Shown piece after piece: positions 1 to 36,861 of a stretch of DNA of 36,879 nt; position 1 is the stretch's first letter; each line of letters opens with the position of its first letter. The notes under the pieces are model-generated. The model saw only the letters and a program-made list of their open reading frames with translations, ran no database searches and was not told the DNA's origin. The position numbers and the translations under genes were made by a program. The stretch comes from a virus (taxonomy: Duplodnaviria; Caudoviricetes), in IMG/VR virus record IMGVR_UViG_3300028400_000018, positions 1 to 36,879 of that record; one strand, written 5' to 3'.

Positions 1-146
1 GCAAGACTCGTGAACCCGGCTGGATGCGCGACCCGGTGGTGCCGACTTATCCCCCCACCACCCCCCTGCGGTCCGCCATCATTTTCTTTTTGCTGTTCAT
101 CGCCCCGATTATCGTGGGCTTACTTTGACCACACGCCACACACACA
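1..146. repeat. Terminal direct repeat, left copy (circular assembly overlap)
   Basis: 1-146 matches 36734-36879 with 3 mismatches near the right end (127, 144, 146). Confidence 0.95.
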
Positions 147-156
147 GGAGGCAATC

Positions 157-551: not shown

Positions 552-590
552 AGTCCCATCGCCCCTATGCGGGCATACACAGGAGGCAAC

Positions 591-1671: not shown

Positions 1672-1922
1672 GATACCCGACTCCTGAAACTCATCGAACG
1701 ATAAGTAATCGTGAATGGAGATTCCTTGACCTCAAGGGCCATCCCAACTCTATTGCCGTAATGCAGCCCGACGGTAAAGAGTATGGGTATTACTTCCTGC
1801 CCGACGAAGAAAACGGAGTGTGGGGAGTATACGACGGGTGCGGAGTGAGAATACCGAATCTTACCCTTGTACCCAAGCTGATAGTAGTTAAACCTAACCC
1901 ACACACAGGAGAAGACAAATGA
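1668..1922 (+). CDS. Hypothetical protein
   Basis: ORF coupled by ATGA overlaps on both sides. Confidence 0.7.
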   Translation: MRYPTPETHRTISNREWRFLDLKGHPNSIAVMQPDGKEYGYYFLPDEENGVWGVYDGCGVRIPNLTLVPKLIVVKPNPHTGEDK

Positions 1923-3132: not shown

Positions 3133-3158
3133 AATCCATATCACACAGGAGCATAAAC

Positions 3159-3347
3159 ATGTTTGACAAGTATCGCATTGCCTTTACCATCGACCCGTCC
3201 ACACAGATGATGGCCCTTGCACGTGCCATAGCCTCGGTCAACGGGCAAGATGTCAGAATCGAGGTCGAATCCGACTCTCCTCTGCGAGACGGCAACGTCA
3301 TATTTATTGACCAGACTGAAATCCGTGAACTGGAGGACAACCAATGA
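3159..3347 (+). CDS. Hypothetical protein
   Basis: RBS CACACAGGAG; 62 aa. Confidence 0.75.
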   Translation: MFDKYRIAFTIDPSTQMMALARAIASVNGQDVRIEVESDSPLRDGNVIFIDQTEIRELEDNQ

Positions 3348-6058: not shown

Positions 6059-6090
6059 ATAGGTTCGAGACATACACAGGAGGCACAACC

Positions 6091-6519
6091 ATGGAAACCA
6101 TGGGCAAAGAAGAGTTGGAGAGTTTGGGCGTCAAGGCCCTGGCCCTCCGCATGCGTCAACTCAAGGACCGGATTGACGAACTCAGCAAGGAGAAGACTTC
6201 CATGCAGAAGGAGTTCGATTTGATCCGAAAGTCCTTGCTTCCCGAGAGGATGGAGGATGAGGGTATCCAGAACCTCACACTCAAGGGCATCGGTCGCGTT
6301 TCCCTGCGACCCGAGCTTTATGTCTCCATCCCCGCCGACTCCAAACCCCTTGCCTATGAATGGTTGAAGGAACACGGGTATGCGTCCCTCGTGACACCAT
6401 ACGTGCAGCCTTCGACCCTGAAGGCATGGGCCAAGGAGCAGATCGAACACGGCGTCGAATTGCCGGAAGATCTGTTTGTCGTGTCGCCCTACACGATGGC
6501 GACCATAACCAAAGCATAA
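6091..6519 (+). CDS. Conserved-type phage replication-module protein (N-terminal coiled coil)
   Basis: RBS ACACAGGAGG; LPERMEDEGI...WLKEHG...VQPSTLKAW pattern typical of small genes upstream of SSB in such modules. Confidence 0.75.
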   Translation: METMGKEELESLGVKALALRMRQLKDRIDELSKEKTSMQKEFDLIRKSLLPERMEDEGIQNLTLKGIGRVSLRPELYVSIPADSKPLAYEWLKEHGYASLVTPYVQPSTLKAWAKEQIEHGVELPEDLFVVSPYTMATITKA

Positions 6520-6536: not shown

Positions 6537-7319
6537 ATGACAAAAGCAATGGCAAAGAAGAAAGAGCAGGAACTGGCATTCACCAAAGAGCGACCGGACT
6601 GGCTCCCTGCAGAGTCCGCCCGTGGACAGGAGAACGTGTCCGTAGAGGACCTCGCCCTGCCGCGAGTGGACGTGATTCAGGACCTGTCCCCGCAGCGTAA
6701 GAAGAACGACCCGGCCTACATCGAGGGCGCGGATTCCGGTATGTTGTTCAACACGGTGACCGGTACTCTGTACGGCGAATCTGTGCAATTCATCCCGGTC
6801 TACTTCCGCAAGGAGTGGTTGATTTGGAAGGCACAGGATGCGGGCGGCGGTCTGGTTGGTGTCTTTGCTACCAAGGAAGAGGCCGAAGATTTCTTCCGCT
6901 CCGAGGGCCTGGACAAGCAGACCTACACCGACAGCAAGGGCAACGAATACCCGATGTACGAAATCGTGGACCACGCCAACCACTTCGGTATCGTCATCGG
7001 TCCCGAAGGTCCGGAGGAGGTCGTGGTTTCGATGTCCAAGTCCAAGATGAAGATCAGCCGGCAACTCAACACGCTGGTCAAGATGGCCGGAGGCGACCGG
7101 TTCAGCCGGGTCTATGAACTCTCTGCTGTTGAGGACCAGAACAAGCAGGGGCAGACCTACTACAACTTTAAGATTCGCCAGCTGGGTTATGTCACGGAAG
7201 AACTGTACAAGCTCGGCGAGCGGATGTACGAGTCAATCTCGTCTTCCGACAAAAAGGTGGCCTATGAGTCGGTTTCTCCTGTGTCCGACGAAGAGGTTAC
7301 CGAGGAAGACGAGTTCTAA
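6537..7319 (+). CDS. Putative ssDNA-binding protein
   Basis: DLALPRVDVIQDLSPQ...G.LFNTVT pattern; acidic tail ending EEDEF; position before polymerase. Confidence 0.65.
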   Translation: MTKAMAKKKEQELAFTKERPDWLPAESARGQENVSVEDLALPRVDVIQDLSPQRKKNDPAYIEGADSGMLFNTVTGTLYGESVQFIPVYFRKEWLIWKAQDAGGGLVGVFATKEEAEDFFRSEGLDKQTYTDSKGNEYPMYEIVDHANHFGIVIGPEGPEEVVVSMSKSKMKISRQLNTLVKMAGGDRFSRVYELSAVEDQNKQGQTYYNFKIRQLGYVTEELYKLGERMYESISSSDKKVAYESVSPVSDEEVTEEDEF

Positions 7320-28446: not shown

Positions 28447-28472
28447 AAAAAGGCCCCCTCCGAAGAGGGGGC
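28447..28472 (-). terminator. Intrinsic terminator after capsid gene
   Basis: GCCCCCTC-TTCG-GAGGGGGC-C-TTTTT; cUUCGg tetraloop. Confidence 0.85.
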
Positions 28473-28490
28473 AAGATCCCACACACAGGA

Positions 28491-29354
28491 TTACAGGGTG
28501 TCGGCCAGATGGACGTGAACGATGTGTTCATCCTCCACCCGAACGGCTCCGAGGGTCATGAAGGCGTAGATCCGCCATGCGAAGCTGATGGACGGGTCTT
28601 CCTGCACACGAGTCGTGATGTCACGGTTCATCTGCAGGCCAATGGCCCGTCGAGTCAGTGCGAGGCAGGAAATCTGGCCAGCAGCAGGGTTCAACAGGCG
28701 AGTCGAAACAATCCAGTTGAAACCCATCCAGTTCGGAACATAACCGGTGGTGGCCAGGGCCTTCACGTTGACATAATCACTGGACGTGTATTCGGTCAGC
28801 TGCTGCAGCTTGCGCAGCTGAGTCGGCCCAATGACCATGAACTTCTCTTCGTCCGGGTCGATGTCGTTCTGCATGAACTTTTCGTACACTGCAGTTACAA
28901 CATCGAAACTGATGGGGGCCGTACCGTCGCCAATCTTTTGACTGGCAGGGAAAGCAACAGCATTGCCATCGCCATCGGTAGCGTCACCAGTTGCGGCGGC
29001 GATGATAACGTCGTCCTGCTGCCGACGCATTGCCATACCGATAGAACGCACGATGTTGCTGTTGGGATCAACCAGCATCTGAACAGGGTCTTCCTGTTCA
29101 GAAGTATCACCGATATCGTACGTTGCGGCCTGGGAAACCCGGCGGCTCCAAGACGAATCGTTTTCAGGGGTTGCCTGACGAGGCCCGGACTTCAACTGAG
29201 CTTGGTTCGCGCCGATGCGCTCCCAGTTGTGCTTTTCGGAATTGACGTTACGTTCGGTAACGACCCGGCGCAGACGAGATTGGGACTGCTGGGCCAGATG
29301 GCGAACGTTGTTCTCGAATGTCTGGATATAGACATTGGAAATGGTGATAGCCAT
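28491..29354 (-). CDS. Major capsid protein
   Basis: F...V..L.QQ..SRLR, AM.R..D..II, WMGFNWI.S.RL, GAVRVEDE; between scaffold and tail tube A; own promoter and terminator. Confidence 0.9.
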   Translation of the reverse strand: MAITISNVYIQTFENNVRHLAQQSQSRLRRVVTERNVNSEKHNWERIGANQAQLKSGPRQATPENDSSWSRRVSQAATYDIGDTSEQEDPVQMLVDPNSNIVRSIGMAMRRQQDDVIIAAATGDATDGDGNAVAFPASQKIGDGTAPISFDVVTAVYEKFMQNDIDPDEEKFMVIGPTQLRKLQQLTEYTSSDYVNVKALATTGYVPNWMGFNWIVSTRLLNPAAGQISCLALTRRAIGLQMNRDITTRVQEDPSISFAWRIYAFMTLGAVRVEDEHIVHVHLADTL

Positions 29355-29532
29355 TGAAACTCTCCTAAGTTAAGGTTCTACGAACTTATGGAGTAGCCCA
29401 GCACCTGCTGGATTCCAATGGCACCTTGAAGATCGACGAGGCGGTAGCCTTCTTTGTGCCTAGAGGTTAGGCGACGGATGGCAGTTGAACCACACAGGAG
29501 GCTGCAACCCGCAGGGATCCATCCGCCGCCTA
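29355..29532 (-). ncRNA. Structured capsid 5' leader / candidate antisense RNA
   Basis: 14-bp stem (29519-29532 with 29468-29481) starts at predicted TSS; apical loop UCCUGUGU; two further stem domains. Confidence 0.55.
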
Positions 29533-29538
29533 GTTTCT

Positions 29539-29567
29539 AGTATAGCACACCGAGCATTCCCCGTCAA
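29539..29567 (-). promoter_or_regulatory. Capsid promoter
   Basis: TTGACG-17-TATACT; 20 bp CGGTGTGCTATACTAGAAAC identical to terminase promoter. Confidence 0.85.
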
Positions 29568-29583
29568 GCCCGATCAGACCCGA

Positions 29584-30465
29584 TCAAGAACCAAATTCGA
29601 TTACTTTGGCTCGAAGGTCATTCACATCGGTAGACGCTTGAGGATTTGCCGCCGCCACGAGTTCCAACATTCGTTTCAGAGCAGCAGCATCGCCACGATG
29701 AAAAGGATGGTCCTTGTTGGCGTAGATTTCATCAATCTTGGCCTGGGCCTCAGCAGGAGTAAGCCCGGTCGGACCGGTAGGAGTATCCGTGGAATTCACG
29801 CCTTCCGGCTTGCCCACGGCTTCCGCTACCGAGTACATGAATTTAACCAGATCAGGGTCCAGGGTCTTGTTTTTCATTGACTCGATCAACTGATCGGGTG
29901 CACCCAGCTTGGTTGCTACATCTGCGGCCTTTTTCAGACGCTCATCGGTCGCGAGTCCCCATTCCTTGATGAGACCATTCCATTTCTCCTGCAATTGGGA
30001 GACGGACTCGGTAAACCGTTTGGCTTCATCCATCGTCATTTTCTCGACGAATTTTTTGAATTGGCCCTTGGTCATCCCGATTTCATGGGCATACTGCCGC
30101 AGGCGGTCCACCGTTTCACGTGGAACCTCGAACCCCTCCGGCTGGTCCGAAAGTTCCGGGAACTCGTATTCCTCTGGTTTTTCCGGAGCACCCAGCGTAC
30201 GCCAGAATTCCCGCGATTCCTCCGGATTATCCAGACTCTCGGGCTTGAGCATCAGATTGGGGGCATGTTGCAGAAGTTTATCGATGAACTTCTGCCGGTC
30301 TTCCTCCCCGGCGTCTTCGCCCGGAATTCGGATAGAGTTACCCTGGAACGATTTCATCTCGACATAGGACTTGGCCAATTTGTCAATAGAATCGAAATTC
30401 TGCAGAGACGGGTCGGCCCGGAGTTCCTCCGGCAGTTGTTCTTTCCAATCGTTTTCGTCAGCCAT
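29584..30465 (-). CDS. Capsid assembly scaffolding protein
   Basis: W...LPEELR, LAKSY, LG.PE.PE.Y, L.KEWG; acidic; between portal and capsid. Confidence 0.85.
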   Translation of the reverse strand: MADENDWKEQLPEELRADPSLQNFDSIDKLAKSYVEMKSFQGNSIRIPGEDAGEEDRQKFIDKLLQHAPNLMLKPESLDNPEESREFWRTLGAPEKPEEYEFPELSDQPEGFEVPRETVDRLRQYAHEIGMTKGQFKKFVEKMTMDEAKRFTESVSQLQEKWNGLIKEWGLATDERLKKAADVATKLGAPDQLIESMKNKTLDPDLVKFMYSVAEAVGKPEGVNSTDTPTGPTGLTPAEAQAKIDEIYANKDHPFHRGDAAALKRMLELVAAANPQASTDVNDLRAKVIEFGS

Positions 30466-32354: not shown

Positions 32355-33709
32355 TATCTAATCCTCCCATGTCTGATAAGTTGTCGTCTGGTGACCCCCG
32401 AGCTATTACGAATGGCCGGAATGACCCGATGCCGGGCAGCGGAAAGAGAGCGGTAATTCTCAGGGAATGTGAGAGCAGCAATACGGAACGCATCGGCCCC
32501 GTGCGATGCCCAGTCATGTACAGGCCGGTCGAGGAACACTTTTAATTTCTCGTTGTATTCCCGACGATAATTATAAAGCGCGTCCACTCCACGTGAGGTA
32601 TTTTTCATATTAAACCGGCAACGGGGGAGGAATGCTTTAACCGCGTCTATCCCCTCCCGGATTGAAAGCTGAGGGGCAATTTCAAAGGATATCCCGTGTT
32701 CTGCTGCCGTTTGCAGGTATGATGTGGCTGTGGCGTAATCCCTCCGCTTGATGTCGTGCGGAGCTACATGCAGCCCGTAGGAATATGGCTGCTCATTGAC
32801 CATCTTGCACCAGTCGATGAGCGACACGTTCGCCATTTCCATGTAATCAATGACGTTAATCCACCCATCATTGCCTTCCTGCAGAAACCAGATAGCTGTG
32901 GCATCCCGCAGGCCGAGGTCCCAGAACGTATGCACTGGTTTGCGCGGGTCCCAGGGGAAATCTCCGAACCTTGCCCGTTTGAGTTCCTCAGTATAGTACG
33001 CCCCAAACAAACCGGCGTCGAAGGAACAGTAAAATTCCTGCTGAGCCAGCAAAGGGTCCATGCCAGCCTTGATTTCTTCCTCGAACTGGGCACGGGAAAC
33101 AATGGGTGTTCCATCTTCGCGTTTAGTATCTTCGATGGTCAGCAATTCACAGAACCAGTCGGGGTTGTCCTTTGCCATCTGGTAAAGGTCCCAGCCATGG
33201 TTCTTTCCTCGGGGGGTGTAGATGAAGATGGCCCACCCACCATTTTCCATGAGTATAGGTCTGATAAAATCCCACGCCCGAGGGTCAGCAATAGAATACT
33301 CGGAGAATACTACGCCGAAGGGGTTAGATCCCACAAGGGAGTCGAAAGAATCCGACCCGACCACCTGCCAGATAGAGCCGGACTTTAGCTCTATCTTCAT
33401 GTCTGTGTTATTGGTTGCCTGCCGGATTTCCGGGGGGAATGCCTGGTCGATTACCTTCTGACCGGTGAAAGGATTGATGGCATCCCAAATTACCTTCCGC
33501 CCCTGCCGCTGGGTGGGAAGCATATGCCAATAGGTTGCGACCTTCCTGTGGGCCTCGACAGCAGTGAAGTTGATGGAGGCTGAGTCCTTCCCTGCCCGTC
33601 GATGCCAGACACAGACCGCCCGTTTCTTGTTCTCTATCGCCATCGCCCGCATGAAGTTTACCTGATGCGGTCGGGCTTTCCAGTTATACGGGAGAGATAT
33701 ATCAGCCAT
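32354..33709 (-). CDS. terL: Terminase large subunit
   Basis: WHRRAGKD Walker A, VFSEY Walker B, TPRG, WDLG..D and HDWASHGADAFR nuclease motifs. Confidence 0.95.
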   Translation of the reverse strand: MADISLPYNWKARPHQVNFMRAMAIENKKRAVCVWHRRAGKDSASINFTAVEAHRKVATYWHMLPTQRQGRKVIWDAINPFTGQKVIDQAFPPEIRQATNNTDMKIELKSGSIWQVVGSDSFDSLVGSNPFGVVFSEYSIADPRAWDFIRPILMENGGWAIFIYTPRGKNHGWDLYQMAKDNPDWFCELLTIEDTKREDGTPIVSRAQFEEEIKAGMDPLLAQQEFYCSFDAGLFGAYYTEELKRARFGDFPWDPRKPVHTFWDLGLRDATAIWFLQEGNDGWINVIDYMEMANVSLIDWCKMVNEQPYSYGLHVAPHDIKRRDYATATSYLQTAAEHGISFEIAPQLSIREGIDAVKAFLPRCRFNMKNTSRGVDALYNYRREYNEKLKVFLDRPVHDWASHGADAFRIAALTFPENYRSLSAARHRVIPAIRNSSGVTRRQLIRHGRIR

Positions 33710-34874: not shown

Positions 34875-34939
34875 TGTCCTGTCGCTGGGGCACACCGCCC
34901 CCGACACCCAACCAACAACCAACACACAGGAGAAAGACC

Positions 34940-35182
34940 GTGGAAAAGAAAGAAAAGCAGATCTGGACAGTCGTACAAGTGTCCGAGGACCAGACCTTCC
35001 CCTGGTCTGGCATCTACGGAAGCGAAGAGGAAGCGAAGGAAGCGGTGGTGGACTACATCCAGCACTGGATCGAGGAAGACGGGGAGTTGGAGTTCTCCCG
35101 CGAGTACGAGGCGGACGGGAACCCGATCCGCGTCTACGAGGATTCCAACGGCGATACCTACCTCCTCGTACGCCACGTCTAA
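34940..35182 (+). CDS. Early acidic protein (80 aa)
   Basis: GTG start after ACACACAGGAG; 20 D/E vs 7 K/R. Confidence 0.8.
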   Translation: MEKKEKQIWTVVQVSEDQTFPWSGIYGSEEEAKEAVVDYIQHWIEEDGELEFSREYEADGNPIRVYEDSNGDTYLLVRHV

Positions 35183-35253: not shown

Positions 35254-35285
35254 AGACCTGCAACCCACACACAGGAGACGCAACC

Positions 35286-35717
35286 ATGAGCAAGCAGACC
35301 AAGACCGACCGCAAAGCAGCCATCGCCGCCCTGCAGCAAGTATGGCCCAACGCCAAGCTGGGGAAAGTGAGCAACGAGGACCTCGCCTTCCTCCTCGATG
35401 TGGCCAAGCATCTGCGGACTGGGAAGAAGCAGATGTCCGAGATTCTCAGCCGCTACCGGAAGGCCTACGAGAAGACGGTGGCTTACTCCGGGAACAAGTC
35501 GGCGGACAACGGCGACGAAGTCGCTACCTTCCTCCGGGGGAAGACGCCGGACGAAGTCGTGGAGTTGGCGGAGAAAGTCCTCAAACTGGAGCCGGGATTC
35601 CTCGTCACGAAGTACGCCGGTCTCAACCCGGGGCAACGCCGAATGAACGCAGGCAACCGGATTCGGGCTGCCATCCGGCGCGGCGACCTCGACCCACAGG
35701 AAGTCCTGGCAAGCTAA
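35286..35717 (+). CDS. Hypothetical phage protein, paralog of 2571..3077
   Basis: DNGDEVA..L.G and LNPGQRRMNAGNRIR; RBS ACACAGGAG. Confidence 0.85.
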   Translation: MSKQTKTDRKAAIAALQQVWPNAKLGKVSNEDLAFLLDVAKHLRTGKKQMSEILSRYRKAYEKTVAYSGNKSADNGDEVATFLRGKTPDEVVELAEKVLKLEPGFLVTKYAGLNPGQRRMNAGNRIRAAIRRGDLDPQEVLAS

Positions 35718-35739: not shown

Positions 35740-35765
35740 TACACCCAACACACAGGAGACGAACG

Positions 35766-35972
35766 ATGAAAACTGTCACACTTGAGCTTACACCTGAGGA
35801 ACTCGAACTCCTCAACGACGGACTGGAAGTATTGCTTGCCCAAGCAAGCTACTCCGACTGGGCACCGACCTTCCAACGAGACGAGGACAGGGAAGAGGAA
35901 ACTAAGCGCGTAGCGCTAGCTTTGTCGGAGAAAGTCAGCCGGACGCTGGCGGATTCCTGGTTCAAGGAGTAA
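35766..35972 (+). CDS. Early acidic hypothetical protein
   Basis: RBS ACACAGGAG; 68 aa. Confidence 0.8.
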   Translation: MKTVTLELTPEELELLNDGLEVLLAQASYSDWAPTFQRDEDREEETKRVALALSEKVSRTLADSWFKE

Positions 35973-36709: not shown

Positions 36710-36861
36710 TCGACTATCTTTACCACGCTTGGCGCAAGACTCGTGAACCCGGCTGGATGCGCGACCCGGTGGTGCCGACTTATCCCCCCACCACCCCCCT
36801 GCGGTCCGCCATCATTTTCTTTTTGCTGTTCATCGCCCCGATTATCGTGGGCTTACTTTTA
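36706..36861 (+). CDS. Small membrane protein running into the terminal repeat (51 aa; stop at 126-128 in left copy)
   Basis: MIDYLYHAWRK...AIIFFLLFIAPIIVGLL; RBS AAGGAG; stop lost only in the right copy by the G>T mismatch. Confidence 0.65.

Follow-up and report, generated by a model that had tools for sequence, protein, structure and literature searches.

Eight early genes of the podophage genome analyzed here share a ribosome-binding tag, three complements of this tag lie on transcribed strands of the same genome, and matching pairs of tag and complement are present in related phages. Base-pairing repression in trans of the tagged early mRNAs by the anti-tag copies, a reading drawn from sequence comparison and modeled folding, is considered moderately probable.

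Genome Organization and Promoters

The window, i.e., the whole stretch of 36,879 nt under analysis (IMG/VR record IMGVR_UViG_3300028400_000018), is a near-complete genome of an uncultured marine PurZ podophage (CheckV 94%) with terminal redundancy, positions 1–146 being repeated at 36734. Among cultured phages, the most similar capsid is that of Alteromonas phage ZP6 (58% identity), followed by those of the Vibrio phages phiVC8, VP2, and K300 (42–47%). A capsid protein with 89% identity to that of the window was identified (P0002), and the closest relative compared at the DNA level had 81% capsid identity. A 99%-identical contig from a second study showed no listed difference across the capsid leader or the 3′ UTR seed described below, and these two elements are therefore not an assembly artefact.

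Among the 48 window proteins scanned, no match to a phage RNA polymerase or sigma factor was found, and one sigma70-type design with an extended −10 was common to six early and two late promoters (Table 1). The terminase-operon promoter has 20 bases identical to the capsid promoter (window 34395-34151, − strand), and an ATG almost directly after it suggests a leaderless gene of ∼68 codons before the small terminase. Short repeated G/C-rich words were observed before the capsid promoter region in L001, L050, L017, and L083 as well as at 29570-29590 of the window.

Table 1. Positions of tags, seeds, promoters, and associated genes in the window.
Feature	Position	Strand	Remark
Tag ACACAGGAG	142..150	+	RBS of gene at 157
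Tag	577..585	+	RBS of ParB-like gene at 591; first gene behind promoter 523
Tag	1903..1911	+	RBS of gene at 1919
Tag	3143..3151	+	RBS of gene at 3159
Tag	6074..6082	+	RBS of DUF7307 gene (6091); first behind promoter 6030
Tag	34924..34932	+	RBS of gene at 34940 (GTG); behind promoter 34846
Tag	35269..35277	+	RBS of gene at 35286; behind promoter 35225
Tag	35750..35758	+	RBS of gene at 35766
Early promoters	523, 2316, 6030, 34846, 35225, 36403		design as capsid promoter
Terminase-operon promoter	34395		design as capsid promoter
Capsid promoter, sigma70-type	29539..29567	-	-35, extended -10
5′-terminal hairpin of capsid mRNA	29468..29532	-	from predicted +1; 14-bp outer stem, inner arm
Seed 1	29490..29502	-	loop UCCUGUGU (29499-29492) and flanks; exactly complementary to all eight tags over 10-12 nt
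Bulged hairpin 1 of capsid leader	29420..29460	-	G-C, then G.U or A.C wobble, then 3-nt bulge
Bulged hairpin 2 of capsid leader	29390..29416	-	3′ strand alternatively pairs with capsid SD
Major capsid protein gene (phrog_3437)	28491..29354	-	carrier of seeds 1 and 2
Seed 2	28478..28490	-	8-mer at 28483-28490; directly after capsid stop codon, no spacer
Intrinsic terminator	28447..28472	-	behind seed 2
Seed 3 CUCCUGUGU	7238..7314	+	7276-7284, apical loop of long hairpin; 9-12 nt complement of tags
PurZ, dATPase, family A polymerase, primase genes		+	
Structural genes		-	

The Early Ribosome-Binding Tag

The tag consists of a C/A-rich run fused to the Shine-Dalgarno (SD) sequence and reads ACACAGGAG at the eight early ribosome-binding sites (RBSs). 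This sequence occurs 10 times in the window against 0.17 expected, and none of 100 shuffles reached 10. Eight of the copies lie on the + strand with an ATG or GTG downstream at RBS spacing in each case, which confirmed the eight + strand genes with a common RBS listed in the initial annotation. The remaining copies are located at 29492 on the + strand, lacking a start codon, and at 7276-7284 on the − strand. The + strand sequence ACACAGGA is likewise found 10 times, at the eight RBSs and once in the non-coding DNA on either side of the capsid gene, and was absent from the ∼19.5 kb of late coding DNA in the window. In four of the eight cases (577, 6074, 34924, 35269), the tagged gene is the first one behind a promoter, and the DUF7307 gene at 6091 is positioned upstream of the genes for SSB, DNA polymerase, primase, PurZ, and dATPase.

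Other roles for these sequences were considered. A CsrA/RsmA site would account for the tag but not for the complements. The + strand copy at 29492 does not qualify as the RBS of an antisense gene, there being no start, as had been proposed earlier. For the + strand copy at 28483, the 282-codon + strand frame behind it (28509-29357) runs opposite to the capsid gene in matching codon register and is probably a codon-usage shadow.

Three Complements of the Tag on Transcribed Strands

The complement UCCUGUGU is present three times on the transcribed strand, at 29492, 28483, and 7276, the last two having been missed by the initial annotation. Folding of 29532-29468 confirmed the 14-bp stem, the inner arm (GUUG/CAAC and AGCC/GGUU), and the exposed loop UCCUGUGU reported for seed 1, with −33.4 kcal/mol and z −3.8, compared to −28.1 kcal/mol and z −3.4 for the + strand; the fold windows were chosen after seeing the data. 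The loop bases are predicted to be 0.75–1.0 unpaired in the full capsid leader, and capture of the loop in cis by the capsid SD, a possible objection to its exposure, was not predicted on folding of the whole leader. The exact complement of seed 1 to the eight tags, in the order of Table 1, is 12, 11, 10, 10, 11, 10, 10, and 10 nt. Thus, the 11–12 nt given earlier for 141-152, 577-587, and 6074-6084 was correct, and the five weaker matches are all 10 nt rather than 9–10. The hairpin also matches the 35258 leader over 9 nt at a second site, which is in the wrong order for one duplex and compatible with chance.

Seed 2 is exactly complementary to two of the early leaders over 13 nt (1898-1910 and 35264-35276) and to the others over 8–11 nt. 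A seed followed by a terminator in a 3′ UTR is the layout of UTR-derived small RNAs, and the capsid 3′ UTR of the window has a like arrangement. Seed 3 is displayed by a hairpin (z −4.1 on the + strand and −2.1 on the − strand) inside the acidic-tail codons of a Pam3 gp34-like gene (6537-7319), which stands second in the replication operon. Within the late region (20 kb), the seed 8-mer was found solely at the two capsid-gene flanks; when the 767 non-coding nt of that region were shuffled, at least two copies arose in 4 of 20,000 runs, or in 8 of 20,000 when either 8-mer was allowed.

Binding energies were estimated with an approximate, accessibility-corrected model. For the eight tagged starts, these ranged from −8.7 to −12.7 kcal/mol with the 5′ hairpin and from −10.1 to −18.6 kcal/mol with the 3′ UTR, whereas none of 18 late starts was bound more strongly than −5.6 kcal/mol in the same approximate model. 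Two untagged + strand starts, 12948 and 13202, also scored (−5.7 to −13.3).

The capsid relatives comprised 172 loci with 154 readable leaders, of which 124 were distinct. The motif CTCCTGT was found in the capsid leader of the window alone (1/124 distinct), and the 5′ hairpin was absent from the 123 others; conservation of the loop in relatives' capsid leaders, on which the initial annotation had made its proposal depend, therefore failed (0/123). The seed 8-mer is located inside stems in two other capsid leaders, L004 and L239, and G004 (78% capsid identity) shares the promoter and the 110 nt downstream with the window but has no 5′ hairpin. Similarly, seed 2 was found in none of the 116 other capsid 3′ UTRs (117 distinct including the window). 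Rather than a conserved unit, the 65-nt hairpin is a scaffold on which this one lineage displays the seed, and it probably doubles as a 5′ stabilizer. No terminator was found after it in the window sequence, and the free processed RNA of ∼65 nt suggested earlier has neither a terminator nor any other sequence sign.

Exact-pattern scans of viral contigs retrieved 14 loci for the loop region, 74 for the outer stem, and 3 for the 3′ seed, all unrelated matches of ≤20 nt. Searches against Rfam gave no match for the capsid leader other than three chance matches (E 1.9–5.8), none for the loci of 20 relatives, none at the gathering score for the window, ZP6, or L308, and none to C4 at E up to 10. Judged by its sequence, the tag/anti-tag element is outside every Rfam family tested.

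Tag and Complement Change Together in Related Phages

A whole-genome scan covered 20 genomes of >28 kb, nine of which contained a tag four or more times, a threshold chosen after seeing the data; G021, G022, and G024 carry the seed but fall below it. The starts in relatives were set by a simple ORF caller and not by a standard gene finder, and one window entry (34932), to which this caller had assigned the wrong strand, was left out of the count. An own-genome complement on the transcribed strand was present in seven of the nine tagged genomes and for four of the six distinct tags, as against 9 of 147 cross-genome pairs, none of them exposed. This null ignores within-genome inverted copies, which are likelier by recombination when tags repeat. 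The observation bears out the co-variation of tag and complement across lineages that had been put forward as a test of the proposal. No complement to the own tag was found in G019 and G023, which have tags on both strands, or in six partial loci with a tag 4–7 times, and the capsid leaders and 3′ UTRs of eight further near-complete genomes matched the own early starts no better than foreign ones. A test restricted to post-stop sequences of the 20 genomes found the ACACAGGAG group only; the co-variation emerged in the whole-genome scans.

Clade II (∼61% capsid identity) uses the same tag as the window. In 8/8 of its genomes or loci, CTCCTGTGT is placed 2–6 nt after the DUF7307 stop codon, and it was the sole invariant block in six aligned clade II sequences, followed by a weakly conserved stem. 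An anti-RBS 8-mer was absent after the DUF7307 stop in 24 of 24 other DUF7307 loci. In the capsid tree, grouping of the window with clade II as one clade was rejected (p-AU 0.002), with two changes in 200 of 200 bootstrap trees, and the carriers of the seed differ between the two. In a distant phage group (L317-L326), a conserved 3′ UTR structure consisting of GAATTCGGC and then a hairpin is also present directly after the DUF7307 stop, and it is not an anti-RBS.

The other pairs involve different tags. ZP6 contains the tag AGGAGAACG five times, and its complement forms the entire 10-nt loop of a 21-bp terminator-like hairpin (L045, NC_070953.1 ∼33457-33509, − strand, loop 33477-33486; z −5.8 compared to −1.3 for the other strand), which is predicted to form solely on the transcribed strand, is unannotated and, among GenBank phages, was matched in ZP6 alone. 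The tagged ZP6 genes have their tags at 37827, 37093, 36371, 35270, 32858, and 30588. G003 contains GAGGTTGAG 14–15 times, with the complement in a 9-nt hairpin loop (z −5.7 vs. −2.1) inside a low-complexity coding tail (L106:12392-12484, − strand), like window seed 3. In G008, with AACCTGGAG five times, the complement is part of one arm of an intergenic structure that a long stem closes (z −4.9 vs. −2.9). Anti-tag loops in strong hairpins of low-complexity C-terminal coding tails of replication-region genes were thus observed in two lineages, G003 and the window. The seed carriers of the relatives are early or replication transcripts and not the capsid mRNA. The tag is absent from the gene that carries or precedes the seed in ZP6, G003, and G008 and from the window capsid gene, and G006 shows an imperfect match. 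It was also observed that G001, G003, and G008 have the capsid module in common with the window and no match to its DUF7307 or Pam3 gp34-like genes; hence, replication modules have been exchanged within the family.

A Separate Conserved Element in the Capsid Leader

The conserved part of the capsid leader is 29460-29352, where two hairpins share one internal motif (Table 1), the wobble being G.U in 158 and A.C in 64 instances. At least two motif copies were found in 92 of the 124 leaders, compared to 12–19 when the leaders were shuffled ten times and 19 for the opposite strand, and the leaders with the motif include those of phiVC8, K300, and loci at 22–31% capsid identity. RNAalifold on 15 aligned leaders recovered hairpin 2 with compensatory change in seven of nine pairs. 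A helix of ≥5 bp between the 3′ strand of hairpin 2 and the capsid SD was possible in 74 of 107 leaders (29394-29383 with 29371-29359 in the window), with a mean length of 5.2 bp vs. 1.8 bp in control windows, and in 75 of 107 ensembles most of the SD was paired at this site. For the window leader, the fold with a closed SD lies 7 kcal/mol below the best one with an open SD.

The capsid leader (29352-29460, − strand) thus looks like a family-wide candidate ligand-gated translational ON switch, in which a ligand would stabilize the bulged hairpins and open the SD. Our guess for the ligand is the scaffold protein encoded just upstream. No Rfam match was found for this element in the window leader or in the loci of 20 relatives. 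The scaffolding protein of P22 is described as exerting translational autoregulation of its own synthesis (10.1101/2022.12.13.520362). The candidate switch would resemble that case in coupling head-protein synthesis to assembly by translational control; unlike in P22, where the scaffold regulates its own synthesis, tandem bulged hairpins before the capsid gene would compete with an anti-SD helix.

Proposed Repression in Trans and Its Alternatives

According to the favored reading, the complements would pair in trans with the tagged messages and shut off their translation as phage RNA accumulates. Action in trans is favored because the carriers are mostly without a tag on their own gene. The seeds are predicted to be exposed in loops or weak hairpins, and the duplexes are predicted to cover the SD; pairing over the SD and the preceding C/A-rich run would block 30S loading and, we infer, repress translation wherever seed and tag RNAs meet in vivo. 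Decay or polarity might extend the block, and polarity could do so because four of the eight tagged genes directly follow a promoter, among them the one that heads the replication/PurZ cluster. The capsid mRNA, stabilized by the 5′ stem at +1 and the 3′ terminator, would become the most abundant carrier and could act, whole or as a cut piece, as a dose-dependent timer in a phage with all promoters of the sigma70 type. The 'late' nature of the capsid RNA in the initial annotation was an assumption, the capsid promoter having the same sigma70-type design as the six early promoters; because of this resemblance, the switch would be set by accumulation and not by a late start. Since the carriers in the relatives are early or replication transcripts, negative feedback inside the early program is suggested there, to which the window phage would have added two anti-tag copies on the capsid mRNA. 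In sum, the earlier proposal of early shut-off through one seed is supported as regards a complement that is beyond chance, predicted to be exposed in the loop, and co-varying with its targets, but not as regards conservation of the hairpin, late timing, or a free RNA.

The properties of a trans-acting seed of the GcvB type were recognized in that a short seed is complementary to the initiation region of several mRNAs and is conserved or co-varies with its targets, while the carrier hairpin is not conserved. Other features count against the favored reading. The seed length of 8–10 nt is short without a chaperone, and the predicted exposure, 0.78–0.86 unpaired for window seeds 1 and 3 and the ZP6 and G003 seeds, is poor for window seed 2 (0.4–0.6), clade II (0.18–0.57), and G008 (0.3–0.64).

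Long-range closure in cis, in which each seed, like that of icaR, would pair with the RBS on the mRNA that carries it and limit the translation time, is possible for clade II, where the complete tag is present in the RBS of seven of the eight DUF7307 genes with a seed, and window seed 3 also lies within the operon headed by the tag at 6074. However, no complement of the own SD region was found for the capsid seeds, which share their transcript with no tag and are not predicted to bind the capsid start, or for ZP6, G003, and G008, whose carrier genes are without the tag, and the G006 seed fits other genes (11–13 nt) better than its own; closure in cis is thus quite improbable. It is also conceivable that information flows the other way, with untranslated early leaders docking on the seed and altering the folding, termination, or stability of the carrier transcript as a sensor or sponge. 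The terminator-like hairpin whose loop is the ZP6 seed, the terminator adjoining the window 3′ seed, and the fact that the carriers are mRNAs and not dedicated genes would agree with such sensing. It appears unlikely, as docking on the window 5′ element and on the coding-tail copies would open just a small inner arm with no downstream platform, and pairing on the tagged side always covers the SD.

The repeats might instead be double-stranded DNA sites for a protein, an operator or roadblock overlapping the RBSs, with the inverted copies as further sites. Many tags lie 15–60 nt behind promoters, such a site reads the same from both strands, and for the similar SAS repeats of mycobacteriophages the choice between RNA and protein is left open in the available text (PMC3203893). 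Against this, the inverted copies are placed in hairpin loops that fold better on the transcribed strand in five of five cases tested, four of them clearly, and late coding copies are absent from the window, which leaves a DNA site highly improbable. The tag could also be a strong RBS, i.e., a C/A-rich enhancer with an SD, spread by cassette copying without any regulation, the hairpin being an ordinary 5′ stabilizer and the complements stray or due to chance. The hairpin is indeed private and begins at +1, C/A-rich runs are described as translational enhancers (PMC7769764), and the ZP6 copy still reads as an inverted RBS with a 5-codon frame. An absence of regulation is nevertheless unlikely, given that the seed is invariant amid variable flanks in 8/8 clade II UTRs, that four different tag and complement pairs were found, and that the complements are placed in loops and present in three copies in the window.

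Comparison With Known Systems

The closest arrangement is the SAS of cluster K mycobacteriophages, a phage-private extended SD found in one orientation upstream of non-structural genes, with function reported there as undetermined, and in four genomes one further copy has the opposite orientation without belonging to a start (PMC3203893, as far as consulted). The likeness, a repeated extended SD in one orientation with a rare inverted copy, concerns the arrangement alone, as the sequence differs, and the phage family and host group are different. Unlike SAS, for which the available text proposes no antisense role, the window has complements that are displayed in loops, present three times, and co-varying with the tag across lineages.

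The single G/U-rich R1 seed of GcvB is described as pairing with C/A-rich stretches beside the SD of many mRNAs (PMC7769764), similar to the seed and tag considered here; GcvB, as presented there, is a host small-RNA gene acting on host mRNAs, whereas the window seed is built into UTRs and coding tails of phage mRNAs and fits the tag of the phage itself. In Staphylococcus aureus, the 3′ UTR of icaR is reported to contain an anti-SD motif which blocks initiation and makes an RNase III substrate (PMC3868564). The 3′ UTR position of an anti-SD motif is common to both, but icaR, on that account, acts on its own mRNA, while most carriers here are without the tag on their own gene and the complementarity reaches beyond the SD into a private tag common to many genes. 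Base-pairing RNAs of phages have been described, namely, C4 of P1/P7, which controls a phage gene (PMC8201110, PMC2864571), StxS (PMC7547250), and PreS/LPR2 of lambda (10.1101/2024.10.31.621285). Like the proposed anti-tags, these are phage RNAs, some from late-promoter regions, that regulate by short pairing; in contrast, they are separate small RNAs, made by temperate phages, each with one or a few phage or host targets, and the consulted parts of these reports describe no shared RBS tag on a gene class. On sequence grounds, the tag/anti-tag pair would represent a self-targeted, class-wide form of seed-based RBS repression carried on mRNAs.

The literature searched on capsid leaders or antisense control of early genes, with subscription papers mostly outside its scope, contained nothing describing a tag/anti-tag pair, and the ZP6 genome paper (PMC8515928) makes no mention of antisense, terminator, promoter, or ribosome binding. 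Either element, the tag/anti-tag pair or the leader switch, may be listed in the supplements of a viral structured-RNA catalogue (PMC10690425).

Implications for Lytic Podophages

Little is understood of early-gene switch-off in lytic phages with host-type promoters only, and descriptions of repeated RBS tags, for instance the SAS of mycobacteriophages, gave them no function; a co-varying tag and anti-tag give a concrete mechanism. The window adds three copies in one genome, the capsid mRNA as a carrier, four co-varying tags in one family, and a cultured test case, ZP6, in which a cultured phage, a marine host, and a single 10-nt loop make the mechanism testable. It is tentatively proposed, on sequence and modeled structure, that a private RBS tag defines an early regulon for which ordinary mRNAs with an anti-tag act as a class-wide repressor, that this device was re-invented with different sequences and carriers in at least four lineages including ZP6 and times the program of lytic podophages that encode neither an RNA polymerase nor a sigma factor, and that the capsid leader is also a ligand-gated ON switch. 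If so, one capsid RNA would both await the head-assembly signal and silence the early genes, and the anti-tag carriers would be the capsid leader, 3′ UTRs, terminator loops, and even unconstrained coding tails. mRNA UTRs and coding tails would then act as regulon-wide repressors without a small-RNA gene.
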